Of a stretch of DNA of 26,385 nt, positions 2 to 22,196 are shown in pieces. Both the position numbers and the translations under genes were made by a program. Origin of the DNA: a virus (taxonomy: Duplodnaviria; Caudoviricetes); the IMG/VR virus record IMGVR_UViG_3300023283_000023, positions 1-26,385 of that record; one strand, 5' to 3'. Below the pieces are notes generated by a model that saw nothing but the letters and a program-made list of their open reading frames with translations, made no database searches and had not been told where the DNA came from. The first letter of the stretch is position 1. Each line of letters begins with the position of its first letter.

Positions 2-3000
2 GTAGATCGCGAGCAATCCCAGATACTTTCTGGCCTTCTGCTCATCTCCGCCGAACATCTTGAGCGCGCCCTGAGCGGACTTCTCGTACCACTCCCGACC
101 CTCGAATCCTTCGTCGAGGAGCTGGCGGGCGATCGCCCGGCGCTTCTTGAACGTCTTCTCCGTCGGGTAGTCCGGTGGCGCACCGACCCAGTTCCCATCC
201 TTGTCCAGCCGGTGCTCGGTGACGATACCGGCCCGGCCCTGAAGGGTCGTCTCGCCCATGAGCGCGGAGCGAACCGAGGGCGTGGCGTTCGGCGTGAACA
301 GCAGGTTGCCGGCCGCGTTGACCCGGCCCTTGACGTCGATGCCACGGCTCTGGAGCACGGCGCGGATGGCGGGGATCGGCCCCGAGACAAGGATCTCGCC
401 CTGCCGGTTGGTCCGGAACGACAGCTCCGGGTTCACCGTGGAGGTCACGGGCGTGATCGACTTGAACCTGACTTCAGAGTCCTTGACGGTGCCGACCGAG
501 AATCGGAACCGCCCGGGCTCGGTCTTGGGTACCGCGTCGATGTCCTCGGTCAGCGATGGCGCTTGTTCTTCCTGGTTGGGTGCTTGCCGGCCGCCGGCTG
601 GCCCGGTGACTTCTGGCTGTTGTAGATCACGGCCGCCCATTCCTTCTCCAAATGCTCGGGCACGCCCCGTTTGATCAGGTCGTCCCTGATCGCTTCGTAC
701 TGTTTCGGCATGAGTGGGTGGCGGGCCGACCGGCTGCGACTTGTCCGCCCCGTCGAGCCACGCCTTGAACTCCTGAAACCCGAGCGTGGTCGCACTGCCC
801 TCGGCGACATTCTCATCCGGGTAATTCTGACGGTAGGCCTCGAGCGCCGCTTCGGGCGTCCGAAACCCGAGCATCACCTTGTGCTCATCGAACGTCCCGT
901 CCGGCTTGTACTGGTCGACCACAACCACCGGCCGCAGCGGGTTGTTCGGCGCCGAGCCGAGGAATACGTCGACCGGATCCCCGTCGTTGCCCTGCGTGCC
1001 CTCGATGAACCCGTAGTGGTTCTGCATCGTCCTCGACCACGCTCGACCGGTCTGAGAATCCCGGCCCTTCCGGGTGCTCCCGATCGGATTTTCGATCGAG
1101 ACGTCGATCCCGTGCTGGAATCTCACGCGGCCCTTCTGGTAGTTGCCGGCCTCGAGGTCCTGCTGGCTGGGCTCCAGGTTGTTCTGCGGGCTGGTCGCCG
1201 ACTGGGCGGCCGCCTGCTCGATCAAGTCCGTCGCCTCCTCCGGTGAGGCCTGGGCGTCGACCACGGCCGGTGTCGGCTGCTGGGTCTGGGCCGACTGATC
1301 AGAAGACGCCGGGCTGCTTGGGCGGATCCTGATGGTCGGCTTGCCCACGTTGGCCCGGGCCGCCTCCACGGCCGGCTGCCACGGGTCGATACTCTGATCG
1401 GCGGCAGCGCGTTCCATGACGATACCGGGCTGGACCTCGATCTCGCGATCACCCTTGGTCAGCGTAAGCGGCTCGATCTCCTCCACGGCATCCCGCAGGC
1501 GACGTTGTTCGCGCTTGCTCTTCGCGGGCACGATGAACGTCCCGTCCCCCGCGTGATAGACGTCGATGTTGCGCTCGGACAGCTTGCGCCCGATATGCCC
1601 GGCCAACCACCGGCCGGCCTCCGGGCCCGCCTCGTTGCCGACCACGTCCTGCGCATTGGACCTGAGGGCCACGTACTCGGCCTCCGGTGGCATTCCCCGC
1701 AGAGCGTCCAGATTCCGGACCGTGGTGATCGGGTCGATGGTCCGCACGTGATTGAGTTGCTCGGGCGTCATCACCTTGGCGATCTTCTGCATGGCCGCTG
1801 CGAACTGGTCCGGGTTCGCGTCGTTCAATTCCGCGTCGATGCCCCGGGATGCTCTTGGCATTTCCCCGGTCTCGGCCAGCACGTCGTACATGGCCAGCGT
1901 CTCCAGCCGGCTGGTGCCCTCGGCCTCGAGCGCTTGGATCTGCTCGAACTTCTGGGCCAGATCGGTCATCTGGTCTATGTCTGAATTCTGGATCCGCTGC
2001 TGCAGCTTCTCCGTGGTGTCGAGCCGTAAGGATCTGAAGTCCACGTTGTTCAGGTCCGGATCCGAGTCCCGGACCCCGGGCTTCGTGTAGCCCACGGCGC
2101 CGAACCCGCCACCGGCGCCGGCGCCGACGATCGAGCCGAGGATCCCGGCGTTGATCGATTCGGCGAGCAGATCCTCGTCGCCGGCCGCCGCCCGGTTGAA
2201 AACATCGAGGGCGATCGCCGTTTCCGTCGCCTCCTGAACGCCCTCGGTCACGCCCTCCATCAACCCCCCTCTTGCCACCGCGCCACCGCGGGTGGCCGCC
2301 CCGCCGGCCATCCGCTCGTTGATCGCCCCGAACGCCGGGATCTTGGACGAACCGTGCTTGGCCAGACTGGCCGCGCCGAGCATCTTGCCGAAGAAGGCGC
2401 CGGCCGGGGCGCCGAGTGTTGCCGTGGCTATACCGGACTTCCAGAACGCCTCTGTGCCGGCCTCTTGCCTCAGCGTCTCCTTGGCGTACTGGATCCGCTC
2501 CTCGATCGGGGATGAATCATCGGTTGCGTCGAAGATCTGGCGGTAGCGCTCGGATGCCATGAGGTCTTCGTGGGGTCGGGCCATGATCATCTGCTCGACC
2601 TCGCCCGCGTTCTGGGCGCCGGCATATACGCCCTCAAAGCCACCGAAGCCGCCAATGCCGAGCGCCGAGTCGACCATCGCCAGTTTTTTCTGCGCCTGCA
2701 AGGCGGCTCTTTGCGCCTCAATACTGGCGCCTGCCTTTGCTCCTGCCTCGATCGTTTCCTGGAGGGCCTTGCGACCCATCGGGTTGGCGAACATCCTGAG
2801 CGCCTTAACCGTACCGCCGCCGCCGAGCAATGAGGCGGCCACGTCGGGCGCGATGCCCGTGGCCTGAAGCGCGACGGACGTGAGGCCCGCGTCACCCCAC
2901 GTGAGGTCGCCATCTTCGTCCCGGGTCACCAACTTCTTGGCCACCTCGTGCTTCGCGGCGTCCGACAGGCTGTTGTTCCACCAGTCGACCGCGTCGTTGA

Positions 3001-3241
3001 AAGACGTCTCGATCAGGCCCCTGGGATCCGCCCCGGTCTTTCGCGCCAGCCAGCCAAGGCCGGAGCCGATGTTCGCGAACCCGCCCATGAGCATCTTGCC
3101 GAAGTCCATGCCCCCAACCTCACCGAAGTCGTCCGGGGAGGGGACAGGGACCGCAGGCTCCGGCAACTGGTAGATTGATCGGGACCTTGCCGCCCGATCG
3201 AATACGGGGTTGACCCGTGGTCGGAGGATGTCTTCGGCCAT
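2..3241 (-). CDS. Large polyvalent internal-virion/ejection protein, 3'-truncated by the window (>1080 aa), with degenerate GGDEF-like and inorganic pyrophosphatase-like domains
   Basis: ATG at 3241 lies 2 nt after the upstream stop (MAEDILRPRVNPVF...). Hand translation of most of the frame found no stop, and its absence from the ORF track fits an ORF open to base 2. Gly/Ala hydrophobic segments (LAESINAGILGSIVGAGAGGGFGAV), PPase motif HYGFIEGTQGNDGDPVDVFL at ~960-1030, and a further globular domain starting near 200 (GREWYEKS...YLGLLAIY). Confidence 0.9.
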   Translation of the reverse strand, partial: MAEDILRPRVNPVFDRAARSRSIYQLPEPAVPVPSPDDFGEVGGMDFGKMLMGGFANIGSGLGWLARKTGADPRGLIETSFNDAVDWWNNSLSDAAKHEVAKKLVTRDEDGDLTWGDAGLTSVALQATGIAPDVAASLLGGGGTVKALRMFANPMGRKALQETIEAGAKAGASIEAQRAALQAQKKLAMVDSALGIGGFGGFEGVYAGAQNAGEVEQMIMARPHEDLMASERYRQIFDATDDSSPIEERIQYAKETLRQEAGTEAFWKSGIATATLGAPAGAFFGKMLGAASLAKHGSSKIPAFGAINERMAGGAATRGGAVARGGLMEGVTEGVQEATETAIALDVFNRAAAGDEDLLAESINAGILGSIVGAGAGGGFGAVGYTKPGVRDSDPDLNNVDFRSLRLDTTEKLQQRIQNSDIDQMTDLAQKFEQIQALEAEGTSRLETLAMYDVLAETGEMPRASRGIDAELNDANPDQFAAAMQKIAKVMTPEQLNHVRTIDPITTVRNLDALRGMPPEAEYVALRSNAQDVVGNEAGPEAGRWLAGHIGRKLSERNIDVYHAGDGTFIVPAKSKREQRRLRDAVEEIEPLTLTKGDREIEVQPGIVMERAAADQSIDPWQPAVEAARANVGKPTIRIRPSSPASSDQSAQTQQPTPAVVDAQASPEEATDLIEQAAAQSATSPQNNLEPSQQDLEAGNYQKGRVRFQHGIDVSIENPIGSTRKGRDSQTGRAWSRTMQNHYGFIEGTQGNDGDPVDVFLGSAPNNPLRPVVVVDQYKPDGTFDEHKVMLGFRTPEAALEAYRQNYPDENVAEGSATTLGFQEFKAWLDGADKSQPVGPPPTHAETVRSDQGRPDQTGRARAFGEGMGGRDLQQPEVTGPAGGRQAPNQEEQAPSLTEDIDAVPKTEPGRFRFSVGTVKDSEVRFKSITPVTSTVNPELSFRTNRQGEILVSGPIPAIRAVLQSRGIDVKGRVNAAGNLLFTPNATPSVRSALMGETTLQGRAGIVTEHRLDKDGNWVGAPPDYPTEKTFKKRRAIARQLLDEGFEGREWYEKSAQGALKMFGGDEQKARKYLGLLAIY
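550..711 (-). CDS. Putative nested 53-aa basic protein overprinted in the +1 frame of the polyvalent gene
   Basis: MPKQYEAIRDDLIKRGVPEHLEKEWAAVIYNSQKSPGQPAAGKHPTRKNKRHR*. The GC3-rich codon pattern switches to this frame between ATG 711 and TGA 550. No Shine-Dalgarno seen. Confidence 0.6.
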   Translation of the reverse strand: MPKQYEAIRDDLIKRGVPEHLEKEWAAVIYNSQKSPGQPAAGKHPTRKNKRHR

Positions 3242-3243: not shown

Positions 3244-4281
3244 TCAGCGGCCGTCGGAGCGCGGCTGCTCTTCCGTGAATCCTTCTATGAACTGCGCCCC
3301 GGCCGCTCCGATTTCGCGACCCGCCTCGAGTCCGATATCCATCGGGTTCCCCGGAAGTGTGAACGCGTCGCGGAACCACATTCCCCATTCTAAGGCAGTT
3401 TTGTCCGTGAAATCCTCGAAGACGCTGCGGGTCGACCGGCCTGCCCGGGTCAGGAACGGCTCCTGATCTCCGGTCGGTTGGGTCGTCCGAGACCCGCTGG
3501 CGTCCGGGCCCTCGGCACCCCCGGGCGGCGCGCGACGATCATCAGGCCGATCGGGGGCAATGGCTTCCGTGTCCACCATGCCGAGATTGAGCGCGGCGAT
3601 GGCCTCGGCCTCGCTGTACGAGTACTCCGGCATCTCCATTAGTCGGCCGATGATCTCCTGCCCCTGCTCGCCAAAGGACTCGCGGGAGATGATGCCCGCG
3701 GCCATCGCGACCTCGGTCTCGTTGATCGCGAGCTCAAACAATTCGTCTTCGATCAACCTCGTTTGCCGAGCGCGGGCCTCCTCACTGGTCGCTAGATCGC
3801 CCTCCATTTCGCGTAGCGCGTCACGCAGCTCCTGGGCACGCTCCTCGGACCGGATCTTCGTCTGCTCGTAGAGCTCGAGCTTGTTGTTCGCCGCCGCGAT
3901 CTCGTTGGCGCGCTCGGTCTGCTCCTGCTGCCACCGGAGCGACTCCTCCTGAATGTCGACGCGCCGGGCGGCGATGTCCGTCTGGGCCGCGCCCTGCTGG
4001 ATATTCGCCTCGGTCGCCTGCCGATCGAGGTCGAGCTGCTCGGTCCTGAACTCGTTCATGAACTCGGTCTGGCCCCGCTGGAACTCAGCCTGCTCGGCGC
4101 GGAATGCATCGTCGGACGCGAATTGCTTCTCCTGAAGCGCGATCTGCCGCTCACGGAACGCCTGCGTCGCCGCGTCCAGCCGCGCCTGACGGGACGCCTG
4201 ATCCTTGTAGATCTGGTGCTCGTATAGGCCGGACAATCCCTGGCTCAGGCCCTCGAGTCCCTTCTGTAGATTCAAGCCCAT
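3244..4281 (-). CDS. Putative ejection/internal virion protein (345 aa, Q/E/R-rich coiled coil)
   Basis: N-terminal MGLNLQKGLEGLSQGLSGL amphipathic helix, then long coiled coil; lies immediately before the large virion protein. Confidence 0.7.
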   Translation of the reverse strand: MGLNLQKGLEGLSQGLSGLYEHQIYKDQASRQARLDAATQAFRERQIALQEKQFASDDAFRAEQAEFQRGQTEFMNEFRTEQLDLDRQATEANIQQGAAQTDIAARRVDIQEESLRWQQEQTERANEIAAANNKLELYEQTKIRSEERAQELRDALREMEGDLATSEEARARQTRLIEDELFELAINETEVAMAAGIISRESFGEQGQEIIGRLMEMPEYSYSEAEAIAALNLGMVDTEAIAPDRPDDRRAPPGGAEGPDASGSRTTQPTGDQEPFLTRAGRSTRSVFEDFTDKTALEWGMWFRDAFTLPGNPMDIGLEAGREIGAAGAQFIEGFTEEQPRSDGR

Positions 4282-4282
4282 G

Positions 4283-5050
4283 TCAGACCCCCTGCTCGGG
4301 CGGCTGTTGCTGCTGTTGAGCCGCCGCTTTCTGTTGGGCGAGACCGACGCCCCGGTTGATCAGGTTGTGCATCGCCTCCGGGTTCATCAACTGGCTGGGG
4401 TCCCAGTCATCGAGTTCCCCGAGCGCGGCCTCCTCTTCCATCATCTCGGTGAGCATCTGGGAGTATTCCTGCTGGTTGACCTGACCGGTCTGCAGCATGC
4501 GCTCGCCGTAGACCCTCACCGCCTCGAGCAACGCCTTGGTCGCCAGGTCCTCGTACTGCGGATCGTCCTCATTCTCCGGAATGTCCGGGAAGATGCCGCC
4601 GTCTCGCGCCAGATCCATCAGCAACTGGGCGACCTCCATGCCGCCGCCGAGCAGGGACTCCGAGGGATATTCGACGCCCTGCCGCTTGGCGTTGTTCTTG
4701 ATCATCATGATGATCTCGGCGGTCGTGCCCCCGATCGCCTCCGGCGCGGCGCTCCCGCGCACGTTCAGACGCGCGAGCACTGCGTCTGCCGGCGTCTGCT
4801 GCATGCCCTCCGCCTTCCGGTTGTCGGACATGAACATCATGGCCCGGGCGACCAGGTCCTCTTGATAGGCCTGCACGGCATCCGGCCGCACGTCTTCCTC
4901 GGGCGGGATCGCACCCGGGGCGACCATGTTGTACGGGTCACCCCCAAGCGAAGTGCCGCTCGTGTCCAGATGCGGCAGCCCCTGAGGCGGCTGGGTCTCG
5001 GGCTCCAGTTGCTCCTGCAAGCCCTGCTCTTCTTCGGGTAGGAATTCCAT
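4283..5050 (-). CDS. Acidic helical protein of the ejection block (255 aa)
   Basis: TGATG coupling with the upstream gene, normal codon bias, begins MEFLPEE; function inferred from position only. Confidence 0.7.
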   Translation of the reverse strand: MEFLPEEEQGLQEQLEPETQPPQGLPHLDTSGTSLGGDPYNMVAPGAIPPEEDVRPDAVQAYQEDLVARAMMFMSDNRKAEGMQQTPADAVLARLNVRGSAAPEAIGGTTAEIIMMIKNNAKRQGVEYPSESLLGGGMEVAQLLMDLARDGGIFPDIPENEDDPQYEDLATKALLEAVRVYGERMLQTGQVNQQEYSQMLTEMMEEEAALGELDDWDPSQLMNPEAMHNLINRGVGLAQQKAAAQQQQQPPEQGV

Positions 5051-5913
5051 CAGATAAAGTCCTCGCCTTCGCCGGCGCTATTGTCGGTGCGACGGCTTCG
5101 CTGCCGGTACTGATCCATCTGTCGATCTGCACCCGTTCTCGGCGGCTGTCTGGTCTCCGGCAAGAATTCTGGCGTTCCGGCCCCGTACAGGTCATCCGTG
5201 GTCGGCCGTTGTCCGGCATTCGCCGGCAGCGCGCGCGGGCCGCCCCGGATGATGTCCATCCCCTCGCCTTTGCGATTCGCGCCCCAGAAATACTTGTTTG
5301 GGTCCCGGGGCTCATCCGCGAACAGGCCGCTGGCAACGTCGGTCACCGTCTTGGCCATCAGCAGCTTGTCTGCCGCATTCATTCCGGAGAAGAACCCCCC
5401 GCGACCTCCGCCGCCGACACTTCCGACACTTCCACCGCCGACATTACCGCCACCGGCACCACCTCCGACACCTCCGGCGGCATTACCGCCACCGGCACTC
5501 CCGCCGCCGCTCAGACCTCTTGCGATATTGCCACCGGCGGAAGCAAGGGACGCAGCCGGCGAACTGAATCCAGCCGATGCCAGACCACTAGCGGCTTGTG
5601 CAACAGACGATCCGCTCATCATGCCGCTTATTCCACCCGCTGCAATCTGGGACCCGGCGCTGCCAAGTGCGTTGGCAGCAGCGGCGTTCGCCGGGCCATT
5701 AATGCCCATGAACGTGGCCGCTTTAGTGAAAATCCCGGCACCCCCGAAACCGGGCAAACTGGCTGCGAAGGCTTGGGTGGGGCCGAAAAACGATAGCGCG
5801 GTACCGGCGGTGAAGTAAGCGGCCGCCGCCATCAACGCAATCGGGGCAACCTTTTTCACGACTTTGCCTATCTTCTTAATTCCGCGCTTCACGCCTTTTA
5901 TGACCTTAGACAT
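5050..5913 (-). CDS. Gly/Ala/Ser-rich ejection (DNA transfer/pilot-like) protein (287 aa)
   Basis: Lys-rich amphipathic N-terminus MSKVIKGVKRGIKKIGKVVKKVAP, hydrophobic stretch and poly-Gly tract, typical of small podophage ejection proteins following a GNAT gene. Confidence 0.7.
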   Translation of the reverse strand: MSKVIKGVKRGIKKIGKVVKKVAPIALMAAAAYFTAGTALSFFGPTQAFAASLPGFGGAGIFTKAATFMGINGPANAAAANALGSAGSQIAAGGISGMMSGSSVAQAASGLASAGFSSPAASLASAGGNIARGLSGGGSAGGGNAAGGVGGGAGGGNVGGGSVGSVGGGGRGGFFSGMNAADKLLMAKTVTDVASGLFADEPRDPNKYFWGANRKGEGMDIIRGGPRALPANAGQRPTTDDLYGAGTPEFLPETRQPPRTGADRQMDQYRQRSRRTDNSAGEGEDFI

Positions 5914-6232
5914 TTACTGCACCTCCGGCCCCAGTCACGTGGGACCACGTCTTTCCATTCAAGATATGACTGACGGTCGCCGTCGTCACACCAAAAAACT
6001 TCGCAATGCTCTTGCGTGTGATATGCCCCTCGAGGTTGAAAATCCTTCGGGCAACTTCGGCGGTCATTTTGTTACCAGCCATTTTCCCCGGTAGCGCCAG
6101 AACCTTCTCCTTCCAGCGCATCTCCCGTCCGTTGCGATCCGTGACCGTACGCTCGACCGACCGCACGCGCCCCAGATCTGAGACCTCGTACAGTCCTTCG
6201 TATCCATCCACGGGTTTCCAGTTCTCGCTCAT
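5906..6232 (-). CDS. NUMOD4 + HTH protein; homing-endonuclease remnant lacking the HNH domain (108 aa)
   Basis: ENWKPVDGYEGLYEVSDLGRVRS is a NUMOD4 motif; C-terminal RKSIAKFFGVTTATVSHILNGKTWSHV is HTH-like; no VHRLVA or H-N-H motif between them. Confidence 0.8.
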   Translation of the reverse strand: MSENWKPVDGYEGLYEVSDLGRVRSVERTVTDRNGREMRWKEKVLALPGKMAGNKMTAEVARRIFNLEGHITRKSIAKFFGVTTATVSHILNGKTWSHVTGAGGAVNV

Positions 6233-6690
6233 GCGGCCTCCGACAATGTAATCCAGTACGCGTCACCCAGCTTGCTCATCCCGACGCTGTTATAGACCTG
6301 GCCGATGGTCTTCTCGTGCATGCCCGAGGAGTGCTGGGACGTGAACTCCACGACCCGGGGCACGGACCTTGACCACGCGATGGCCGCCTTCAGCAGCTCG
6401 GCACCACCACCGGGCACCGAGGAAAAAAACGCAAGGTCGGTGACGTACCGCGCGCCCCCCCGGGGATCCGTCCACCAGTACGGTACCGCCGTCAGGAGGA
6501 TGAACCCCTTGACCCCGTTGTCCATGAGGATGAAGCACTGCTCGGTCGCGCTCGAGATCGCCCGGCGGAACGCGAAGGCGATCATCGCCCTCGACTCCTC
6601 GAGCTTCTGGTACACGGTCCGGTTCTTCATCCGGATCCCGTATTCAATGGTCTCGGCCAGGTCGGTCATTTTCATCTGCTGGACGCTCAC
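6229..6690 (-). CDS. GNAT-fold acetyltransferase-like protein (153 aa)
   Basis: VKGFILL...YVTDLAFFSSVPGGGAELLKAAIAWSR resembles GNAT motif A; YNSVGM resembles the YxxxGF motif; GNAT genes are common in podophage virion modules. GTGA overlap with the upstream gene. Confidence 0.7.
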   Translation of the reverse strand: MSVQQMKMTDLAETIEYGIRMKNRTVYQKLEESRAMIAFAFRRAISSATEQCFILMDNGVKGFILLTAVPYWWTDPRGGARYVTDLAFFSSVPGGGAELLKAAIAWSRSVPRVVEFTSQHSSGMHEKTIGQVYNSVGMSKLGDAYWITLSEAA

Positions 6691-8171
6691 GTCGCGCCTC
6701 CGCCGGCGTCAGGCAGCGACATTCCCCCACCGATCTGCCCGGTCGCGCCGCCGTAGCCACCCGACGACGCTGCCGGCGAACCATGGTACGAGAGGTAGTC
6801 GTGGTACGGCGACCCACCGATCCCGGACTGGGCCGCGGGGCCCCCGTTGGCGTTGAAGAACGTGGCCATCAGGTTGATGTTCTCGGTGACCGCCGGCCTC
6901 AGCTGGCCGATCGCGTGCTGCATCTGCTCGGGCGTCAGGTCGCCGCTCCCGATCTGGCCGATCATCGCCAGTTCCGTCTGCAGCATGCCGAAGACCTGCT
7001 GTTGATATTGCAGTGACTGCTGCATACCGAACTGTTGTTCGTTCAACTGCAGGTTCTGCATGAACTGTCGGTCCATGAGCGCCGCCTGTAGGTCCGAGTT
7101 GAACCCGGCGAGCGCCATCTGCGACTCCGTCTGGAACGCCATGGACTCGAGGTTGTAGTCCTGCACGACGCCCAGCCGCTCCACGTCGAGTACGTGATTG
7201 AGTTCCATAGATTCGAGGTTCTGGGCGTGCATGACCCCCGACTGCTGCAGCCAGTGGTCCTGTTGTTGCTCCGCGAGCCGGCTCCTGCCCCGGATCTCGG
7301 CCGAGATCTGGTCGATCGCGCCCTGTATCTGCTCCTGCTGGAGCCTCGATGCCTGACGGAAATTCTGCTCCGAGAGCATCGCCGAGTGCATGAACGCCTG
7401 CTCGGCCTGCGAAAATTGGTTCGCGGTGATCGCGTTGAACTCTGCGCTCCGTGCGAACGTCGCCGCATCTTGAGACGAGATCTCGAACGCCTTGCTCACC
7501 GTCGCCAACTCTCCGGCGGTCAGGGCCATAAGGCTGTTCTTGAGGCCCCTTCTGGCCGCGTTGGTCTGCGCGCTCTCTTGGAGAACCTCGAACAACGGGG
7601 AGTCCTTCGACAGGTTGTTCTCCAACTGGCCGGCTACGGTCTGGTCTTCGGTGACCTCCCACTCCGTTGGGCCCGGCATGTTCTCCGGCATCTCCGGCAG
7701 GAATTCAGGCCTGTCATCACCCCAGCCGACCGGCGTATTCCGCGGGGTCGACGTCTGCGCCGGCCTCTGGTCGTTCGCGCCCGCAATCTGGGCCGAATTT
7801 CTGGCCTCCACGGACGGTTCGGGAAGGAACTCCTTGTGCTGCGCACGTCCCGCGCTGTCCGATAGGGACCGAGGGCCCACGGGCGTGATTGCCTGATCGC
7901 CTCCCGTGCCCGAACTCGGCGGCCGGGTCGCGCCCTGATTGTTGGCCGCTAGGTGATGCTGGGGACCCGCAGGCTTCGACTTCCCGCCCACGGGCTCCGC
8001 CGGGCGTGTCGGCGGCCGGGTCGCGCCCTGATTGTTGGCCGCTAGGTGATGCTGGGGACCCGCAGGCTTCGACTTCCCGCCCACGGGCTCCGGTAGCTCG
8101 ATAGCATCCTTGGCCGACTTCTGCATCTTCTCCATGCTGTCAGTCGATTCGTCCAGAAAATCCTTCGCCAT
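6687..8171 (-). CDS. Putative ejection/internal virion protein (494 aa; disordered N-terminus, Gln-rich coiled coil)
   Basis: GGAG upstream of ATG; AARRGLKNSLMA segment and Q/M-rich helical C-half; first gene of the ejection block. Confidence 0.7.
   Translation of the reverse strand: MAKDFLDESTDSMEKMQKSAKDAIELPEPVGGKSKPAGPQHHLAANNQGATRPPTRPAEPVGGKSKPAGPQHHLAANNQGATRPPSSGTGGDQAITPVGPRSLSDSAGRAQHKEFLPEPSVEARNSAQIAGANDQRPAQTSTPRNTPVGWGDDRPEFLPEMPENMPGPTEWEVTEDQTVAGQLENNLSKDSPLFEVLQESAQTNAARRGLKNSLMALTAGELATVSKAFEISSQDAATFARSAEFNAITANQFSQAEQAFMHSAMLSEQNFRQASRLQQEQIQGAIDQISAEIRGRSRLAEQQQDHWLQQSGVMHAQNLESMELNHVLDVERLGVVQDYNLESMAFQTESQMALAGFNSDLQAALMDRQFMQNLQLNEQQFGMQQSLQYQQQVFGMLQTELAMIGQIGSGDLTPEQMQHAIGQLRPAVTENINLMATFFNANGGPAAQSGIGGSPYHDYLSYHGSPAASSGGYGGATGQIGGGMSLPDAGGGAT
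7916..8092. repeat. Perfect 84-bp direct repeat, period 93 bp (31 codons), inside the 494-aa gene
   Basis: 7916-7999 is identical to 8009-8092; encodes EPVGGKSKPAGPQHHLAANNQGATRPP twice. Confidence 0.95.
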
Positions 8172-8493
8172 CGGCCCACTCCATCCATGATTTCAGGCGT
8201 TCCGCGAGAACGCTGTATTTGCCCATTGTACTCACAGCCCAACGAAGTGCAATATCGGCCTGCTCCGGGGGTGTCGCGCCACCCTCGATATCAATGGGTG
8301 AAAGTTCCGGGATCTCGGCAAATGACCCCTCAGGGGCGATCGGCTTCTGGGGCTCCGGGCACTCCCTGACGAATACCTCGGTTGATGGCCTCGGCTGTCT
8401 CGTTCCACAGCCGGATATCATCACCATCCCACTGGCAATGACTGCGACCAGAAAACCGTTCTGCCACGGCCTCCATCTCTTCGTTGATTTCAT
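8140..8493 (-). CDS. o-spanin (Rz1-like outer-membrane lipoprotein, ~117 aa)
   Basis: MKSTKRW...FLVAVIASGMVMISG|C lipobox, followed by a Pro-rich region (ECPEPQKP); overlaps the 3' part of the i-spanin gene in another frame. Start moved from 8520 (TTG) to ATG 8493. Confidence 0.85.
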   Translation of the reverse strand: MKSTKRWRPWQNGFLVAVIASGMVMISGCGTRQPRPSTEVFVRECPEPQKPIAPEGSFAEIPELSPIDIEGGATPPEQADIALRWAVSTMGKYSVLAERLKSWMEWADGEGFSGRID

Positions 8494-8773
8494 TGATCCG
8501 TTCCTCTCGTCTGGCGGCAATCCTGCGGGCGCGCTCAGCGCTGGAGCGCTCCTGTTCGATGATCTCCTTGTACCTGTCTACCGTCCTTTGGTGCTCCTCG
8601 TTGGCCAGCTCAATCTTCTCCCTACCCTCCCGGCGCTCGGCCGCGAGCTCGGCGCGGTGCTCCTCCTCGAGGCCGCTCATCCTGTCCGCCCAGGCCGCGC
8701 GCTCGACCCTCTGCCCGATGAACACTCCGAGCGCTATGCCGGCTATGGCCGGTATCATGAGTTTCCAGATCAT
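8330..8773 (-). CDS. i-spanin (Rz-like, 147 aa)
   Basis: N-terminal TM (LMIPAIAGIALGVFIG), coiled coil, C-terminal C...RLWNE; directly after the endolysin. Confidence 0.85.
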   Translation of the reverse strand: MIWKLMIPAIAGIALGVFIGQRVERAAWADRMSGLEEEHRAELAAERREGREKIELANEEHQRTVDRYKEIIEQERSSAERARRIAARREERINEINEEMEAVAERFSGRSHCQWDGDDIRLWNETAEAINRGIRQGVPGAPEADRP

Positions 8774-9342
8774 TGTGTCACCTTCATCAGTTTGTACCGG
8801 TGTTCAATGTGCCTGATGTACCCGATCGTTTCGTGCGCGTGATGGCCCGTGATCCAGTGCAGGAAACGACTGATCTCGTCCCACCTCCGACATTCGCCAC
8901 CGCAGGGCATCGACCGGCAAATCCTCTGCGCACGAATGATGTTGCCGGTCCCCGCGTTATAACCGGCCTCTCCCAGGCGCCTGACCTCGATATACGGTCT
9001 GGGCTCGGTCCACGTCAGCATCTGCTGGGACAGGTAGTAGGCGCCCGCATTGATCGATGGCTCAACGACATGCGGACTGAATCCACTGTAGCCGAGGATC
9101 GCCGCGACCTCCCGCCACGTCCCGGGCATGAACTGCGCTACGCCCCGGGCACCGACCGGGGACACGGCATCCGGGTCCAGCCTGGACTCTTGGTACAACT
9201 GCGACCGGTACCGGACCCAGTCCGCGCCTGGAAGCCACCGTTCGGACGCGCGCTCTATGAGCGGGTCGTATTCTGTGTGCCCGATCTGGCCCGCGGCCGG
9301 CGAGGATAGGAGCGCGATAACGATCAGGGCTCGAATGTTCAT
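8770..9342 (-). CDS. Endolysin, SLT-family lytic transglycosylase with N-terminal signal-like sequence (~190 aa)
   Basis: QES catalytic motif, AVSPVGARGVAQFMPGTW and YNAG motifs. ATG 9342 overlaps the holin stop (ATGA), so it is preferred over 9378. Confidence 0.92.
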   Translation of the reverse strand: MNIRALIVIALLSSPAAGQIGHTEYDPLIERASERWLPGADWVRYRSQLYQESRLDPDAVSPVGARGVAQFMPGTWREVAAILGYSGFSPHVVEPSINAGAYYLSQQMLTWTEPRPYIEVRRLGEAGYNAGTGNIIRAQRICRSMPCGGECRRWDEISRFLHWITGHHAHETIGYIRHIEHRYKLMKVTQ

Positions 9343-9665
9343 GACGCGGCGATGATCAGCGCGACGGCCACAACCCACGCCCCGAAATAGATCGCCGAGG
9401 CCATGGAGCTCGCCTGAATGCTGTCCCGGGCCATCTTCCAGTCAATGCCGCCGAGACGATCCCGGAGTCGTAGCGAAAGGAACAGAAAGGCTACGAGGAA
9501 AGGGACTTTGATAACGTCCAGCAGGGCGCTGAAGATGCCGACCATCCCGATGCTTCCCGAACCGCCCAAACGATCGCCGATGACCCATACAAGACCGGGC
9601 AGCAGGACCACCACCATCATAACGATCGCCCATTTCCACTCCTTCAGGATTTCATTTATACGCAT
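9339..9665 (-). CDS. Putative holin (108 aa, ~3 hydrophobic segments)
   Basis: Small hydrophobic protein directly upstream of the endolysin; GAGGA Shine-Dalgarno. Confidence 0.7.
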   Translation of the reverse strand: MRINEILKEWKWAIVMMVVVLLPGLVWVIGDRLGGSGSIGMVGIFSALLDVIKVPFLVAFLFLSLRLRDRLGGIDWKMARDSIQASSMASAIYFGAWVVAVALIIAAS

Positions 9666-9680
9666 GCTCAGTTCCTCATG

Positions 9681-10196
9681 TTAGAGCCCGCTCGCGAAGC
9701 TCGCCGTGATGGTGAACGTGGCGCTCCCCAATACGTTCCCGCCGCCATCATCGATCTCCACGAATAATGCCGATGCCTTGTCGCCCTCGAACGCCCTCTC
9801 GTTTCGCCACTCGCGCGTGGTGCTCAGGGCGTGCCACGCGTCGAGCGCTGGACCGGATGTCGGCGTCGTGCCTGATGACAAGGTTGCTCTCACCCGATAC
9901 CCGGATCCCGTGAACGGGATCAGCCACTCTCCCGAGATGTCGGCCAAGACCCCGCCCTCGTTCTTCTTGAGTTGCCCAGAGCTGTCGAAGACGATGCCCG
10001 CTATCGCGGTGCCGGAATCCACCGCATCGGTTATCACCAGATTCGTCAGGATCACGGTAACCGCCGAATAGAATTTCTTCCACGCCCCGCTGTCTTTGAC
10101 CCACGCTCCCTTTACCGCCTTCCATGTACCGCCGTCGCGCACGCTCGGTGCCGTGACCTCTTTCCATGACCCGGCATCGCGGACGTGCATCGGCAT
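9681..10196 (-). CDS. Tail-fibre-associated / receptor-binding tip protein (171 aa)
   Basis: Three V[RK]DxGxWK repeats at the N-terminus, a pattern typical of genes following fibres that end in GDIW; TGATG-coupled to the fibre gene. Confidence 0.65.
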   Translation of the reverse strand: MPMHVRDAGSWKEVTAPSVRDGGTWKAVKGAWVKDSGAWKKFYSAVTVILTNLVITDAVDSGTAIAGIVFDSSGQLKKNEGGVLADISGEWLIPFTGSGYRVRATLSSGTTPTSGPALDAWHALSTTREWRNERAFEGDKASALFVEIDDGGGNVLGSATFTITASFASGL

Positions 10197-12025
10197 CAGA
10201 CTTGCAACCAGATGTCGCCGTTGGAGCCACCGGACGGACCGGACGTCGACACCGTGATCGACGCGGCCGTCCCGACCCCGATGTGATTCTGGAGCGCGCC
10301 GAGCTGTTCGGCGGCCGCCTCGCGTGTGATGCTCGACAAGCTGGCCCCGTTCGAGGTCGCCTGCAGGAAACCGTTGCCCGTGTGGGTCCCCATACCTGTA
10401 CCGCCCCGGGTGACGCTTAGGACGCCGCTCGTGATCTTCGAGACCGGGAGGTCGGGAATTCGGAATTCGCTTAGGACGCCGCTTGTGATCTTCGAGGCCG
10501 GGAGGCCGGGAATCCGGTCCCCACTTAGGACGCCGCTTGTGATGTCGGCCGCGGAATGCGTGTGCGACGTGGGCGCCGCGCCGATGTCAACCCGGACCTG
10601 GCTGGGACTCAAGCTGCTCATCGGCGCCGTGTTGTTTCCGACCAGGAAGAAACCGGTCGATATGGATGTCCTGCCCGTGCCGCCACGACTGACGCCGAAG
10701 CTGCCGCTGTCGATCTTGGACGCGGGCAGCCCGGGGATCTGCGCCTCCCCAAACGCCCCGCTCGTGATCTTCGAGGCCGGGAGGTCGGGGATCCGCGCCT
10801 CCCCGAAAGTGCCGGTCGTGACCTTCGACGCATCGAGGTCAGGGATCCGCGCCTCCGCCAGCTCGCCGCTGACGATGTCGCCCGCCGCGTGCGTGTGAGA
10901 TGATGCCGCGCCCCCGATGTCGGCGAGGACCTGTGCCGGCGTCCTCAGCTCGAACGAGGACGAGGTCGAGGCCCGAACGTAGTTCGACGCGACCAGCGAA
11001 TTCAGCCCCGTGCCGCCACGACTGACGCCGAAGCTGCCGCTGTCGATCTTGGACGCGGGCAGCCCCGGGATCCTCGCCTCATCGAATTCACCGCTGACCA
11101 CGTCGGCCGCGGCATGTGTGTGCGAATCGCCCGCGAAATTGGCCTCCACATAGCCCTTGGTCGTGAGCGTCCCCGACGGGTCCCCGCCGGCCGTCGCCGC
11201 GCTCGTGACCTTGCCGCCGACCACGTCGATCGCGCCCGCGTTGGTCACCGTCCCGACGGTCAGCGTGTAGCCCGTGTCGTCCCATGAAAGCTCCGCCTGG
11301 CCTCCAGCGAGCCCCGAATTGTTAAACTGGACCATCCCGTCCGAACCCGCCGGCGGGTTTTCCCCGGCGACCACCTGCTGGATCTCGTCGTTGATCTTCT
11401 GCGCGCTCCACAGGTCCGTGGCGGCCGTGGACGCATCATTGATGACCCGGTGCTCGGCGACGTTGTAGTTGGTTAGCGCATCGTGGTCGATGGCCGCCTG
11501 GTGCTGGGTGACGCTCGACTCGCTGATTCGCGCGCTGGCGAACGTGCCGGCCGTGACGTCGGCCGCGGCGTGCGTGTGCGACACTCCAGCGAACGCGGAT
11601 TCCGCATAACCCTTCGTCACCACCGTCGTTGCCCCGTCCCCGCCAACCGTGGCGGCCGACGTGGCCTTCCCTGTCACCGCCAGCGTGCCGCCCATGGTCA
11701 CATTGCCCTGCAGGTCGGATGTCCCGGTCACCGTGGCACTGGCAGCTTGCAGGGCGCCGCTCAGGGTGGCCGTGGCGCCAGTGAAGGCCGTGACCGCGAT
11801 ATTGGCCACGGACAGAGTGTCCGTCGCCTTGTCGAACGTGAAATCCGCGTCGCCGCCGAGGTTGTCGCCGTCGTTGAATTGCACCTGAGTGTCGGCCCCG
11901 CCGGGGATCGTACCCAGCGCGTCGAACCCGGCCTCGATCAGTTTGAGCTGGCTGTTTATCTCCGCCGCTCGGGCGATGCGGCCGGGGAACGAGGTCTGGA
12001 CGAACGTGTAGTACGGATTGGCCAT
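10196..12025 (-). CDS. Tail fibre protein (609 aa)
   Basis: N-terminal attachment segment (RAAEINSQLKLIEAGFD), two VQFN[DN] repeats, four SHTH motifs, repeated IP[GD]L[PD]ASKI[TD]SG units, C-terminal PSGGSNGDIWLQV. Confidence 0.88.
   Translation of the reverse strand: MANPYYTFVQTSFPGRIARAAEINSQLKLIEAGFDALGTIPGGADTQVQFNDGDNLGGDADFTFDKATDTLSVANIAVTAFTGATATLSGALQAASATVTGTSDLQGNVTMGGTLAVTGKATSAATVGGDGATTVVTKGYAESAFAGVSHTHAAADVTAGTFASARISESSVTQHQAAIDHDALTNYNVAEHRVINDASTAATDLWSAQKINDEIQQVVAGENPPAGSDGMVQFNNSGLAGGQAELSWDDTGYTLTVGTVTNAGAIDVVGGKVTSAATAGGDPSGTLTTKGYVEANFAGDSHTHAAADVVSGEFDEARIPGLPASKIDSGSFGVSRGGTGLNSLVASNYVRASTSSSFELRTPAQVLADIGGAASSHTHAAGDIVSGELAEARIPDLDASKVTTGTFGEARIPDLPASKITSGAFGEAQIPGLPASKIDSGSFGVSRGGTGRTSISTGFFLVGNNTAPMSSLSPSQVRVDIGAAPTSHTHSAADITSGVLSGDRIPGLPASKITSGVLSEFRIPDLPVSKITSGVLSVTRGGTGMGTHTGNGFLQATSNGASLSSITREAAAEQLGALQNHIGVGTAASITVSTSGPSGGSNGDIWLQV
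10400..11110. repeat. 45-bp (15-aa) degenerate coding repeats and a 59-bp exact duplication in the tail fibre gene
   Basis: Repeated IPGLPASKITSG-type units; 10674-10732 equals 11007-11065. Confidence 0.85.
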
Positions 12026-12026
12026 G

Positions 12027-14099
12027 TCAGAACTCCCGCTTCAGCCGCCGCGGCGACCACGTGATGTTGATGCCGTGGAGGACGTGCTCTAACTCCGTGG
12101 CCGAATTATGATACAGGTGCAGCCCGACGTTGAAGCCGGTGTCCTCGATATAGAACGAGGGATCGGAACCCACGCCCTGAGACCACTTGAATTCCGCCCA
12201 CTCGGCGACGTCCCAGAACCCGCCGGCCGCCTCGGTCCCGATCTCCTGCACCACAGCCCCGGTCGCGCCGGTCCCGCCGTAGTTGACGTCGATCGAGCCC
12301 GAGATCGAGGCCTGGAAGCCGGACATCTCGAGCACGGCCTTGCGGTAGCGCTTGTTCTGCTCCGGGCTCCCCGAATGATAGAAGACCAGCAGGACGAACG
12401 CCTCGATCGGATTCCCGTCGAAGTTCCTGCCCACGTCCTGCTCATAGACGAAGCCATCGTCTGAGCCGAAGAAGGCGCGCTCGATATTCCCCTCGGTCTG
12501 GCTCGACCACAGGGCAGTGACCGGTCTCCCGTAATCGATGAGAGTGAAGCCCGCCGGTTCCGTGCCGTGGAACCCGAGCACCACCGCAGTGCCGTCCGTA
12601 TAGAACAGGCGCCATAGGTTCAGCGACCTCGATATCTGGGAGCCGAAGACGTTCGCGGTTTTCTGGTCGAGGAGCGGCTTGATAAGCTGGCTGAGGTCCC
12701 CGGGCACGAAGTTCCCGAACCGGTCACTGCTCACCACGCTGGACACGCCACGCTGGTCGAGATGGACCGTCGAACCGATCCTCTGCGCGGTGTAAGGGAC
12801 GGCCCCCATCTCGGTATTCAAGGTCACCAGGTTGAACTCTTCAGCGGTCCGCCCGTACAAGATCTTGATCTGCTCCTCGGAGTAGATCAGGAGCGCGTTG
12901 TCCACTTCCTCGACGAACCCCGTACATTGATCACCGATCAGGATCTCGCCGGCACCGCTGACCACGCTCCACGTCCACGGATCATTCGGTGCGCTGTTCT
13001 GGATGCTCCCGCCCTGGAACGAGAGCATGAGCATGTTGTTGTTGTTGGCAATGAAACTCGGGGTGTCCGGGTCCATGCCGGTCTCGATGAACCCGAAGAC
13101 CCCGTCGTTGCAGTCGTATTCCCAGGGTGCGTTCTTGCCGTCCACGCCGTACAGGCGCGGGTCGACCAGCTTGTTGTCGAAGGTCGAGATCCTGAACTCG
13201 TAGCGGCCGCCCGGGGCCAGGACCTGTTGCTCGAGCGTCCCGCTTGCGACGAACGCCTGGACGCCGTCGATGGTGATGTTCTCCCCGTCCGTGAACGATC
13301 CGACGATGTTGCTCAGGATCACGTAGCCGGCGGCCGACTGGTTAGATATGAACCCGCTCTTGATCCGGAGCCGCTCGATCTCCGCGGTGGCCCCGGATGA
13401 GGCACCGGTGATCGTGTCCCCGTCCGCCATCTCCAGTTCGCCGCCGGTGAACCGGAGACGTTGGTTGAGCGCCACCTCGGTCCAGCCGCTCGAGCTCGAC
13501 TCGTACATCACGCACGCCGTGCCCCCTACGTTGTCGCGGAACGCGTAGACATTGCCACAGTAGTTGACCACGCCGCGGATGGGTCCAGACCCCGGGACAG
13601 ACTGGATGGCGTCCCTTCGCACCGTCTCCGCGGCCGTGCGGGCCAGCGTGTTCTCCTCGTCGGTGCCCGTGTCGTTCTCGAGCACCGCAATGACGGTGTT
13701 GCCGTTGAACACGGTGCCGACCACGGGATCATCGCCGGTTACGTCCCCGATCGTCACGTCCCCGCCGTTGGTCACGTAGATCACGGTCGCCGAACCCGAG
13801 GCTGAATCCCAGTCAACCGCGTCGTCTACCGACAGGTTCGAGTCATCGCCATCGGTCACGATCGTGATGAACCTCGCCTTGTGCGGCTGGGGCCTACCGT
13901 CAAACCGCTCGTAACCCTTGACCCGACGGTAACCGCCACGCCAGTACGGCTCGTAGTTCATGCACGCCAGAAGCTGGCCGGGCTGGATGGACAGGAATGG
14001 GTCGATCAGGTTCAGCCCGCCCCGGAACGGGTAGTAGTCGGTGCTGTTGATCCGCTGCTGGGGAACGCCCTGCCTGGACCGGGCACCAATGTTAAACAT
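12027..14099 (-). CDS. Tail nozzle / DNA-stabilisation protein (tail tubular B or P22 gp10-like, ~690 aa)
   Basis: FRGGLNLIDP...NYEP...GGYRRVKGYERFDG N-terminus, beta-rich composition, position after the adaptor. Start reassigned to ATG 14099 (MFNIGAR), since the longer ORF runs through the upstream gene. Confidence 0.75.
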   Translation of the reverse strand: MFNIGARSRQGVPQQRINSTDYYPFRGGLNLIDPFLSIQPGQLLACMNYEPYWRGGYRRVKGYERFDGRPQPHKARFITIVTDGDDSNLSVDDAVDWDSASGSATVIYVTNGGDVTIGDVTGDDPVVGTVFNGNTVIAVLENDTGTDEENTLARTAAETVRRDAIQSVPGSGPIRGVVNYCGNVYAFRDNVGGTACVMYESSSSGWTEVALNQRLRFTGGELEMADGDTITGASSGATAEIERLRIKSGFISNQSAAGYVILSNIVGSFTDGENITIDGVQAFVASGTLEQQVLAPGGRYEFRISTFDNKLVDPRLYGVDGKNAPWEYDCNDGVFGFIETGMDPDTPSFIANNNNMLMLSFQGGSIQNSAPNDPWTWSVVSGAGEILIGDQCTGFVEEVDNALLIYSEEQIKILYGRTAEEFNLVTLNTEMGAVPYTAQRIGSTVHLDQRGVSSVVSSDRFGNFVPGDLSQLIKPLLDQKTANVFGSQISRSLNLWRLFYTDGTAVVLGFHGTEPAGFTLIDYGRPVTALWSSQTEGNIERAFFGSDDGFVYEQDVGRNFDGNPIEAFVLLVFYHSGSPEQNKRYRKAVLEMSGFQASISGSIDVNYGGTGATGAVVQEIGTEAAGGFWDVAEWAEFKWSQGVGSDPSFYIEDTGFNVGLHLYHNSATELEHVLHGINITWSPRRLKREF

Positions 14100-14811
14100 C
14101 GCGGACCACCATGTCCTGCTCCTCGTGGCTGGCGCCACCCCGGAACCCGGGTAGGTAGTTGGATTCCAGCCGGGTGACCATCTCGTCGAACTCGTTGGCC
14201 GAGCCCTGCATGATCTCCGGCGCGTTCTCTCGTTCGGCGAAGATGATCTTGGCCCGCACCAGAACCAGCCGGTCATAGCCGTCGGGCAGGATGATCTCGT
14301 CGTCGTCGTTCACCAGATTCGGGGGTTCGCGGTAGTATTCGTACCGGTAATCGAACACTCCGCCGATTGGATGCGAAAACTCGATTGTCCGGTCTGGCCG
14401 GAATGTCCACGCGTTCGGCGTCGTGCTCGGCGTGCGCGGTGACCCGTGCCTGTAGATCTTCTTGAAGTCATCCCACTCCAGATACCGGACATCCCGCCAC
14501 GCGTTCCCGGACTGGATCTGGAAGCTGTGGCGCTGGGTCTTGTACCGGCGCGGCTTCGGGGTGGCGCTCGGTAGGACCGTGGCACCGGCATCTACCTGAT
14601 CCTGGGTCGTGGTCCCCGTCTCCTCAAGCCACAGGAAGTCCCAGTCGGGCCACATCGTGCAGATGCTGAGATGGGCCTCCCGGACGTACTGGATCACCCT
14701 TGAGACCCCTGAGGACTCGAGACCCGTGGCAAGGTCGATTGGGCCGGTGCCGCCCGCGACACCGACCTCGCTGACAAAGTCCTGGACGATCTCGAGGTAG
14801 GTCCGGGACAT
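14092..14811 (-). CDS. Head-tail adaptor (tail tubular A-like, 239 aa)
   Basis: RTYLEIVQ N-terminal helix, WPDWDFL motif, LVNDDDEIILPDGYDRLVL; typical size and position. Confidence 0.75.
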   Translation of the reverse strand: MSRTYLEIVQDFVSEVGVAGGTGPIDLATGLESSGVSRVIQYVREAHLSICTMWPDWDFLWLEETGTTTQDQVDAGATVLPSATPKPRRYKTQRHSFQIQSGNAWRDVRYLEWDDFKKIYRHGSPRTPSTTPNAWTFRPDRTIEFSHPIGGVFDYRYEYYREPPNLVNDDDEIILPDGYDRLVLVRAKIIFAERENAPEIMQGSANEFDEMVTRLESNYLPGFRGGASHEEQDMVVRDV

Positions 14812-15299
14812 CAGTCGCTCGTGTTGTCAGCCACGAACCGGGCGTTCTTCGCCTTCGACCCTTCTCCCGTGAACGGCAGGTGCGCGACCTCGGACTCGTC
14901 TGTGCCGTCGGCCAGCATCCGGCTCTTCAGCTCCTCGACCATCGCCTTGAGCGCGTTGGCATGCATGCCCATCGCCAAATCGTAGTTCTCCTGCCAGTCG
15001 TCCGTCGTCTCCAGCGACTCTTCGCCCTCTTCGGGCTCGGGCTCCGGGGTGGGCTCGGGCTCCGGGGTGGGCTCGGTTTCGGTGGACTCGGTATCCGTAT
15101 AGGAGACAGTCTCATCAGCTTCCAGCCCCTCTTTCTTCAGCTCCTGCAGTTCCCGCTGGGTCATCCCCGATGGCCGGGCCGCCTCCTCGGTAGAGACCTC
15201 CACGCCGGCGCCGTTGAAATAGTGCCCGGCCTGATAGAACTTGGCCACGCTGTGACCCGAGATCTCCGAATACGGCGCCTTCCTGTTGAATTTCGCCAT
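14811..15299 (-). CDS. Hypothetical acidic protein with PE/PT linker (162 aa)
   Basis: TGATG-coupled on both sides; EPTPEPEPTPEPEP encoded by an 18-bp tandem repeat at ~15035-15076. Confidence 0.75.
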   Translation of the reverse strand: MAKFNRKAPYSEISGHSVAKFYQAGHYFNGAGVEVSTEEAARPSGMTQRELQELKKEGLEADETVSYTDTESTETEPTPEPEPTPEPEPEEGEESLETTDDWQENYDLAMGMHANALKAMVEELKSRMLADGTDESEVAHLPFTGEGSKAKNARFVADNTSD

Positions 15300-15559
15300 C
15301 AGTATCCCACTCCGTCATCGATTGCCTCGTCCATGCTCCCCATCCCGACCCGCATTGACACGCCGTCCGCGAGCGACGGGTCGCCCATGTGCGTCGCCTC
15401 GATCTCGGCGTGAGATCTTGAGACGTGCCTATAGCCAGCCCCATTGGGCGTGTTCCTCCCGTAGTAGTCGCCCGACTTGGTCTTCTGACCGTCGATCGCG
15501 TGCGACTTGTTCTCCACCCGCACGCGGTCGCTCATCTCGTTGTGCAGTTCCATCAACAT
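15299..15559 (-). CDS. Hypothetical protein (86 aa)
   Basis: Strong GGAGGTGA Shine-Dalgarno; stop overlaps the next ATG. Confidence 0.8.
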   Translation of the reverse strand: MLMELHNEMSDRVRVENKSHAIDGQKTKSGDYYGRNTPNGAGYRHVSRSHAEIEATHMGDPSLADGVSMRVGMGSMDEAIDDGVGY

Positions 15560-15572
15560 GGCGTCACCTCCA

Positions 15573-15603
15573 GAAAAAAGGCCGGGTCAGGCTGGCCCGG
15601 CCT
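15573..15603 (-). terminator. Rho-independent terminator after the capsid gene cluster
   Basis: Minus strand AGGCCGGG-CCAGCCTGA-CCCGGCCT followed by a T run. Confidence 0.8.
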
Positions 15604-15634
15604 GTAAGCAGCGGCATATTCCGCCCTGTTTCCC

Positions 15635-15928
15635 TTAGCCCCAGCGGTGGCCGCGCGGAGCGGAGTGCTCTGCCGGCCCGATCGGGGTCTGGTTCGGTCC
15701 AGCGGTACCCATACCGAGTTCCTCGGGCAGGTAGTCCATGAACGGCTTCTTGCAATACAGGCCGTTGGCCAGCGTGCCGCCGCTCACCTCACCGAAATCT
15801 TCGGCCTGGGCCGTGGATTCCGGGTAGTTTCGGCCATGCGGGTCCGTGTACCCGTAATCCATGTCCTTCCCCTTGTACCCGTAATCCATGTCCTTCCCCT
15901 TGTACCCGTAATCCATGTCCTTCTTCAT
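15635..15928 (-). CDS. Hypothetical head-region protein with KDMDYGY repeats (97 aa)
   Basis: AAGGAG upstream of ATG 15928; the ORF-track start 16015 lies inside the upstream gene. Confidence 0.8.
   Translation of the reverse strand: MKKDMDYGYKGKDMDYGYKGKDMDYGYTDPHGRNYPESTAQAEDFGEVSGGTLANGLYCKKPFMDYLPEELGMGTAGPNQTPIGPAEHSAPRGHRWG
15847..15923. repeat. Perfect 27-bp tandem repeat, ~2.85 copies
   Basis: tgtacccgtaatccatgtccttcccct at 15847, 15874 and (23 bp) 15901. Confidence 0.95.
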
Positions 15929-15959
15929 CTCAATCTCCTTGGTTCGGTGTGGGTGCGCC

Positions 15960-16334: not shown

Positions 16335-16348
16335 TCCTCATTCCTCCA

Positions 16349-16400
16349 TTAAGTCACGAAACCGCTTGGTCTCATATTTTCTCCTGTGACCAGGCGGTTC
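16349..16400 (-). promoter_or_regulatory. Intergenic hairpin enclosing a Shine-Dalgarno and an 8-codon mini-ORF
   Basis: AACCGCcTGGTC...GACCAaGCGGTT stem around ACAGGAGAAAATATGA; ATG 16375 to TAA 16349 encodes MRPSGFVT. Confidence 0.45.
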
Positions 16401-16413
16401 TATAGCATACCTA

Positions 16414-17406: not shown

Positions 17407-17441
17407 CGTTACATCCTCCGTTGATTGCGCTCAAGCATGGG

Positions 17442-21968: not shown

Positions 21969-21969
21969 G

Positions 21970-22140: not shown

Positions 22141-22164
22141 GAGTGGCCCTCCGGTGTTTGTGCG

Positions 22165-22193: not shown

Positions 22194-22196
22194 ATG

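Follow-up and report, generated by a model that had tools for sequence, protein, structure and literature searches.

Our data favour, on balance, the view that a frame of 53 codons lying out of register within a giant virion protein gene is a gene in its own right: a nested member of a family of small phage proteins, likely translated from its own ATG, whose separate product would bind DNA in head assembly. Gene-calling programs would miss a gene so placed.

The nested frame and its setting

The DNA analysed – hereafter the window – is an entire viral contig of 26,385 bases, approximately 43% complete. Domain and PHROG matches define a late operon around the giant gene (3244..24638, minus strand) that includes genes for the terminase large subunit (22197-24638), an SU10-type portal (18927-21206), the major head protein (16414-17406) and an adaptor (14092-14811), all on the minus strand, together with tail-like and transglycosylase genes. 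The giant gene itself, which encodes a polyvalent-type virion protein (2..3241, minus strand), is truncated by the contig end. Its frame is open from 3538, and ATG 3241 is the more likely start than ATG 3388, because the first 49 codons from the latter overlap the upstream gene. Pfam identifies a polyvalent-type pyrophosphatase domain in the protein (InPase, PF18823; 755..1162, minus strand; E 3.4e-44), and its N-terminal part bears a weak likeness to N4 virion RNA polymerase and DarB-like PHROGs. A search for close relatives of the phage found none: the best 80 matches to the region fall on the InPase domain, at 35-51%, and none of the collected loci was matched in tblastn by the protein's N-terminal, GGDEF-like or downstream parts. 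Positions 1-3600 hold no sigma-70 promoter or terminator pattern.

The nested frame (550..711, minus strand) occupies the +1 frame of the giant gene and runs from ATG 711-709, some 15 codons past the end of the InPase domain, to TGA 552-550, with both frames open throughout the overlap. Read in the host frame (551..712, minus strand) the same DNA – that is, the -1 reading of the small gene – encodes an acidic linker rich in Gly, Gln and Glu. A preliminary description of this DNA had drawn attention to the frame from its letters alone, noting that the linker follows a pyrophosphatase domain (here placed at 1162-755, with no host-frame stop beyond), that a run of three prolines is encoded just upstream, and that codons in the overlap end mostly in G or C when read in the +1 frame and more often in A or T when read in the main frame. 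All of these observations were reproduced. Both translations are the same; 45 of 53 codons in the +1 frame end in G or C, and 31 of 54 in the host frame end in A or T. Across the giant gene's other 1026 codons A/T third positions amount to 14.4% (binomial P 3e-13 for the overlap), and no other stretch of 54 codons contains more than 17. Codon adaptation to the genes of the window tells the same story: the +1 ORF scores 0.70, and the host frame scores 0.37 within the overlap and 0.72 elsewhere.

Among 12 genes checked, one other (5050-5913, minus strand) reaches 30 of 54 A/T-ending codons. It was rejected as a further case of nesting, being Gly/Ala-rich with its other frames broken by stops; its product is a Gly/Ala/Ser-rich protein of 287 residues with low GC3 and an ejection-type look, and no alternative frame is open. 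An assembly slip as the origin of the nested frame was likewise rejected. Contigs from two sequencing runs, spanning 22-3400 and 1-3400, agree at 550-735 with no difference, gap or joint, the runs being two samples of one study, one of which is possibly the source of the window itself.

Three further features of the region deserve mention. At about 1349-1741 (minus strand) the giant protein contains a degenerate GGDEF-like stretch with an altered catalytic motif; it gave no Pfam match, and weak matches (13.2 and 3.2 bits) to the GGDEF domains of two other hosts. Between 3244 and 3538 (minus strand) the frame of the giant gene is already open beneath the last 98 codons of the upstream gene, with the same register that it has beneath the nested gene, and further fusion could capture that gene also. 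Lastly, the terminase large subunit (22197-24638; 813 residues) shows weak LAGLIDADG/homing-endonuclease matches at residues 273-355, suggesting an intein.

A family of small basic proteins

The predicted product comprises 53 amino acids (6.2 kDa, pI 10.1), with neither cysteine nor any hydrophobic or membrane stretch, and its predicted model consists of two confident helices (residues 3-15 and 19-33) followed by a basic unstructured tail. A single-sequence word search with the peptide found nothing; the family emerged by profile search. A scan of viral contigs returned 23 loci, and a profile of 20 sequences recovered 544 proteins at E<=0.001 among 993 candidates, with 14 matches among 50%-identity representatives. 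The Met-Pro of the motif is the start of the protein in 118 of the 120 family matches listed; median length is 50 residues and median pI 10.4. Profile similarity thus places the peptide in a widespread phage family whose members are small, basic and built of two helices. Its net charge (+6) compares with a family mean of about +9 to +10, and its profile score (57 bits) lies within the range for nested copies (23-91). It keeps M1, P2, Y5, E6, A7, R9, D10, G16, A26, A27, I29, Y30, N31 and P39, along with the ATG, the stop and the basic tail.

Named relatives are few. No Pfam family scored above its cut-off for the peptide family, tblastn of the peptide against cultured phages gave no match, a fold search of the predicted model against 48,161 chains returned a best Z of 4.5 and no usable match, and a PDB sequence search with the peptide found nothing below E 0.45. 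A tblastn search of cultured phages with another family member gave a weak phiYS40-type match alone, in 6 records. The first 34 residues of Thermus phage phiYS40 YS40_168 (phrog_32268) match the profile at 21.5 bits (best of 500 shuffles, 7.5), and phrog_32268 is matched by 10 of 20 family members; the N-terminus of YS40_168 is a probable distant relative, although the protein itself differs in being a 361-residue acidic hypothetical protein that is not nested and is family-like in its N-terminal part. The second helix also gives a weak match to DUF7218 (PF23855), reached at E<=1 by 13 of 20 family members with 3.4e-4 as the lowest value, and at 0.85 by an Atlas cluster. Membership was rejected, the peptide scoring 14.3 bits against a cut-off of 27, and DUF7218 appears at most a distant relative; neither the window's genome nor control genomes contain a DUF7218 match.

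A search that scored 7999 candidates yielded seven longer proteins with the family domain, which is N-terminal in all seven. In P0134, P0138, P0135-P0137 and P0105 this N-terminal domain is fused to phrog_4590-like domains or to low-complexity tails, the latter with a common short Tyr-Ala-x-Gly-Gly motif. P0122 (813 residues) was rejected as a family member, being a helicase with unrelated repeats.

The distribution of the family in relation to giant genes is central to our argument. The first scan, three more and the window together gave 160 distinct starts, of which 4 were removed for low profile score; copies were taken as nested where the host-like frame is open for 100 or more codons on both sides. 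By this definition 52 of 156 copies (window included) are nested, 10 more are probably nested but cut by contig ends, and 94 are free, the host-like frame being broken by stops in 75 of the free copies and open just briefly in 19; since the loci were found by +1-frame patterns, decayed copies are under-sampled in these counts. Where the locus extends at least 1.5 kb to either side of the copy, the nested fraction is 48/90. The other same-strand frame provides no nested copy at all, and long antisense frames also cover three copies. The preliminary description had raised the question of whether homologues exist and are themselves nested in large virion genes, and these counts answer it in the affirmative.

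Such numbers bear directly on the suggestion that the frame is a chance opening in a low-complexity linker and no gene at all. In G+C-rich genes an open +1 frame is common, and the hosts contain hundreds of +1 ORFs; yet chance is scarcely credible here, being already refuted by the hundreds of free-standing homologues, and the shared start and motif, the enrichment of Shine-Dalgarno (SD) sequences and the synonymous bias described below stand equally against it.

The hosts are diverse. They span 458-4291 codons as recovered (at least 1000 in 47/52), and BLAST places the flanks of the 52 hosts in 33 groups. A Pfam scan of 43 of the 51 other hosts found polyvalent-type domains (InPase, LPD38, LPD23, ART-PolyVal, MuF_C or ddrB-ParB) in 16, other domains in 2 and none in 25, so that not all hosts are shown to be polyvalent proteins. 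The pyrophosphatase domain occurs in 13 of the 51, upstream of the nested copy in seven and downstream in six.

This diversity has a bearing on the idea that the peptide inhibits or chaperones some adjacent domain of the giant protein, such as the pyrophosphatase, and is nested for joint production; an immunity partner of this kind was among the roles first proposed. Thirteen hosts do have the domain, at one locus (L081) the order and spacing of pyrophosphatase and nested copy are identical to those of the window, and a basic peptide opposite an acidic linker presents opposite charges. However, 38 of the 51 other hosts lack a match to the domain, including the host of the nearest relative (L072); none of 80 loci chosen for pyrophosphatase carries the family within 5 kb; 94 copies are free, and one of 53 examined adjoins a giant gene; and the opposition of charge results from the frame shift itself. 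A complex prediction for the peptide and the InPase domain scored 0.00 and weighs for neither side. We regard a domain partner as improbable, and this part of the original proposal was not supported by the comparison.

Free copies keep different company. A manual tally of neighbours at 53 free loci, covering 110 of 111 same-strand ORFs of 180 or more residues, counted 22 loci with a terminase, portal or head gene no more than three ORFs away; tail genes were found at 3, a giant protein directly upstream at 1, replication genes at 7 and no named match at 20. Head, packaging, tail or giant-protein genes together lie within three ORFs at 26/53. One free copy, L184:3850-4005 (+), begins 15 bases past the stop of a giant DarB-like gene.

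Probable initiation at the nested start

Start signals across the family bear on how the nested frame would be translated. Apart from the window copy there are 51 nested copies, of which 43 have an SD ahead of the start, as do 45 of 75 free copies; the background, taken from the remaining +1 ATGs of these hosts, is 362 in 2664. The rule in the family is to initiate independently, not by frameshifting. The ATG itself gives evidence too: a scan anchored on helix 2, and hence made without use of the start, gave 65 loci (55 distinct), 42 of them family members and 11 nested, four of these new, and the ATG is kept in all 11, while free copies exchange ATG for GTG, TTG or ATC. At L002, L146, L179 and L188, which are nested or probably nested copies on A+T-rich contigs, A-rich leaders replace the SD.

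The copy in the window departs from this pattern. The 20 bases upstream of ATG 711 (leader, 712..731, minus strand) hold no SD motif, as the preliminary description had noted, and anti-SD pairing is -4.6 kcal/mol; 15 of 28 other listed starts in the window have an SD. Aligned leaders read GGAG in L072, L081 and L030 and GCCA in the window, within the codons CCG-CCA-CCC (716..724, minus strand) that encode the proline run in the host frame. The loss of the SD is peculiar to the window copy. What remains is a weakly folded start: among 34 internal ATGs in the gene the 50 bases surrounding ATG 711 fold the least, and 94-99% of windows are more strongly folded than this region. Shuffled sequences reach equally weak folding in 2-20% of cases, so the effect is partly one of composition. 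Starts without an SD have been reported in unfolded regions (PMC3121790). From the rule in the family together with these features we predict, with some assurance, that the window copy is initiated at ATG 711. Of the initial claim of a nested gene with its own start, then, the conserved gene and the family's own start signal stand; the window's copy lacks the SD that such a start would usually show.

Polyproline stalls ribosomes, and CCC codons are prone to +1 slippage. The alternative first entertained for the window was accordingly a +1 frameshift at CCC-A which, instead of or besides own initiation, would yield a shorter giant protein of about 842 residues with a 55-residue tail ending in the basic hairpin. 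No stop interrupts the +1 frame over the 54 codons before ATG 711, and the proline run occupies the former SD site. Nevertheless the slippery site is unconserved – among the leaders of the 52 nested copies (window included) PP occurs in 4, and CCC within the last five codons in 7 – and prolines are in any case frequent in the host linkers of nested copies. Add to this the SDs of the other nested copies, the ATG retained in every copy found without its aid, and the N-terminal position of the domain in all seven longer proteins recovered from 7999 scored candidates, and frameshifting becomes a remote prospect, one that we do not carry forward from the preliminary description.

A different challenge is that the window copy, once a working nested gene, has lost its SD and is now silent or barely translated, the loss being recent or the linker slow to change. 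The change from GGAG to GCCA is consistent with this, as are private residues, foremost A22E – position 22 is Ala in 45/50 nested and 88/92 free copies, and Glu in none of those – and a long end branch in the protein tree (0.5 against a median of 0.12). Broken copies may also exist: L091, at the same site as L011:5001-5160, is a nested copy with TAG at codon 15 and an intact-looking remainder, the TAG marking either a broken copy or a recoded stop. Set against fading, the window copy retains its start and stop codons, its basic tail and the remaining conserved positions; its profile score lies inside the nested range, its codon use has not drifted, and its start is the least folded of 34. We consider a silent copy rather unlikely, and own initiation at ATG 711 the better account.

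Origin and significance of nesting

Which of the two frames selection has preserved can be read from their divergence. Over positions 12-33, which lie outside the search pattern, 51 nested copies (L091 omitted for its internal TAG) share 41% identity when read in the +1 frame and 27% when read in the host frame. In 14 non-overlapping pairs 80 of 198 changed codons are synonymous in the +1 frame, compared with 16 of 202 in the host frame. Selection preserves the small protein, not the linker. Over the overlap, host GC3 is 0.38 in the window and has a median of 0.46 in 19 G+C-rich nested copies; the window copy shows no drift back to host codon use.

Given that the small protein is also free-standing, and that selection acts on the +1 frame, the linker, rather than the small gene, is likely the newcomer. 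De novo overprinting, in which a new frame arises on an older host gene and its protein occurs nowhere but in the overlap, was considered and set aside because of the 94 free copies, the 33 groups of host flanks and codon use favouring the +1 frame. The term 'overprinted', applied to the small gene at the outset, is thus not supported in its strict sense; the comparisons indicate that the small gene is likely older than the linker.

A DNA tree requires 24 changes between free and nested states, eight of them forced by starred branches, and protein trees require 33, of which 2 (quick tree) or 16 (careful tree) are forced; these trees were built from as little as 120 bases or 46 columns, are unrooted, have unsettled bootstraps and count changes that cannot separate gain from loss. 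A single clade of nested copies was rejected (AU p 0.037). Together these results point weakly to several gains or losses of nesting.

A plausible route begins with base composition. In G+C-rich phages the -1 reading of the small gene is often free of stops: among free copies the host-like frame lacks a stop in 12/21 of those that are G+C-rich, 6/31 at lower G+C and 1/42 of those that are A+T-rich. For the host frame it is enough to stay open: T at stop-forming host-frame sites occurs at 0/691 in nested copies (partly by definition) and at 13/285 in G+C-rich free copies. A giant multi-domain gene could then grow or fuse across the small gene, whose DNA would become an acidic linker while the swallowed gene continued to work from its own start; such capture probably occurred, or was reversed, more than once. 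In the window copy, which has lost its SD, initiation would depend on the unfolded start and would probably be weaker.

Growth of this kind may extend beyond one family. In 136 dereplicated ORFs of 800 or more codons (33 from loci chosen solely for the pyrophosphatase) other +1 ORFs recur: two families have 19 and 14 distinct matches, the host frame being open in every case, and another family has 2, the matches being counted within collected loci that are partly related. The deeper the dip in host-frame codon use, the more often an SD is present, the frequency climbing from 11% to 40%. Of 56 other nested candidates, 54 were scanned with Pfam, and none exceeded a cut-off. We suggest, tentatively, that giant injected-protein genes grow by swallowing free genes whose -1 reading becomes linker while their own start and product are kept, and that this has been repeated in the basic, putatively DNA-binding head family and in several others.

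As to the individual cases, a second family of helical +1 ORFs of about 50 residues lies shortly before the InPase domain in giant InPase-bearing genes (19 distinct matches, none with a Pfam match; loci include L228, L239, L242, L257, L271, L273 and L279, for example L279:4591-4734 +). A third nested family, of about 34 residues and rich in Gln and Lys, is nested in 14/14 cases (L279:6649-6750 +, L271:6619-6720 + and relatives). Two mutually related nested ORFs of 71-78 residues, L029:9041-9274 (-) and L224:6943-7155 (+), give a faint TnpV match (E 0.044); L029 also carries the small basic family, and L147 has three further strong nested candidates.

The arrangement resembles known systems – Rz1 in Rz and comS in srfA – but is neither. 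Lambda Rz1, like the present gene, is a small +1-frame gene lying wholly within a larger phage gene. The two partners, Rz and Rz1, act as a single complex, each fixing the position of the other, and two-component spanins take embedded, overlapped and separated forms, with stop read-through over a downstream gene discussed as a route (PMC6139136). No spanin family in that survey had some members embedded and others separated (PMC6139136), whereas the present family has both free and nested members, in hosts of 458-4291 codons and at a variable site. An embedded o-spanin of the Rz1 type was rejected: such a protein would carry a lipoprotein signal with Cys and lie in an i-spanin of the lysis cassette, but the peptide has no cysteine or hydrophobic stretch, and the host is an InPase-bearing giant protein. 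Bacillus subtilis comS, in the srfA operon, is likewise a small same-strand out-of-frame gene with its own function, but the published account concerns one bacterial locus and describes no free twin or repeated capture (PMC12350097). The host gene has its counterpart in phage polyvalent proteins, in which InPase (PF18823) is part of a large virion-cluster protein; the main text of that study uses none of the terms 'overlap', 'frameshift' and 'alternative frame', and does not describe nested genes (PMC5512222). In the open-licence literature, searched by titles and abstract openings, we found nothing on nested genes in giant or polyvalent phage proteins.

The function of the product is the weakest step in our argument. 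Because the product is small, basic, helical and most often found among late genes, its likeliest role would be to bind DNA while heads are assembled or DNA is packaged, conceivably as an internal protein; we hold this as a possibility somewhat short of probable. The lysine/arginine-rich helical hairpin, made with the late genes, would bind or neutralise DNA at packaging and may enter the head. The internal head proteins of T4 are small and packaged, their lysines contact DNA phosphates, and they have a common capsid targeting sequence (PMC3012670); the parallel with the peptide is a working analogy drawn from charge and gene neighbourhood.

Nested genes such as Rz1 and comS are known as single cases; here one family is both free and nested in dozens of phages, at sites with unrelated flanks. 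These observations point to a route to overlapping genes that is opposite to textbook overprinting and that sequences can test. The SD-less copy in the window offers a natural test of SD-free initiation within a translated gene. Annotation of giant phage virion genes likely overlooks genes, and 'linker' motifs can be the shadow of another frame. If growth by capture is indeed general, the linkers of giant proteins would hide an unannotated layer of phage genes that move as cassettes between domains.
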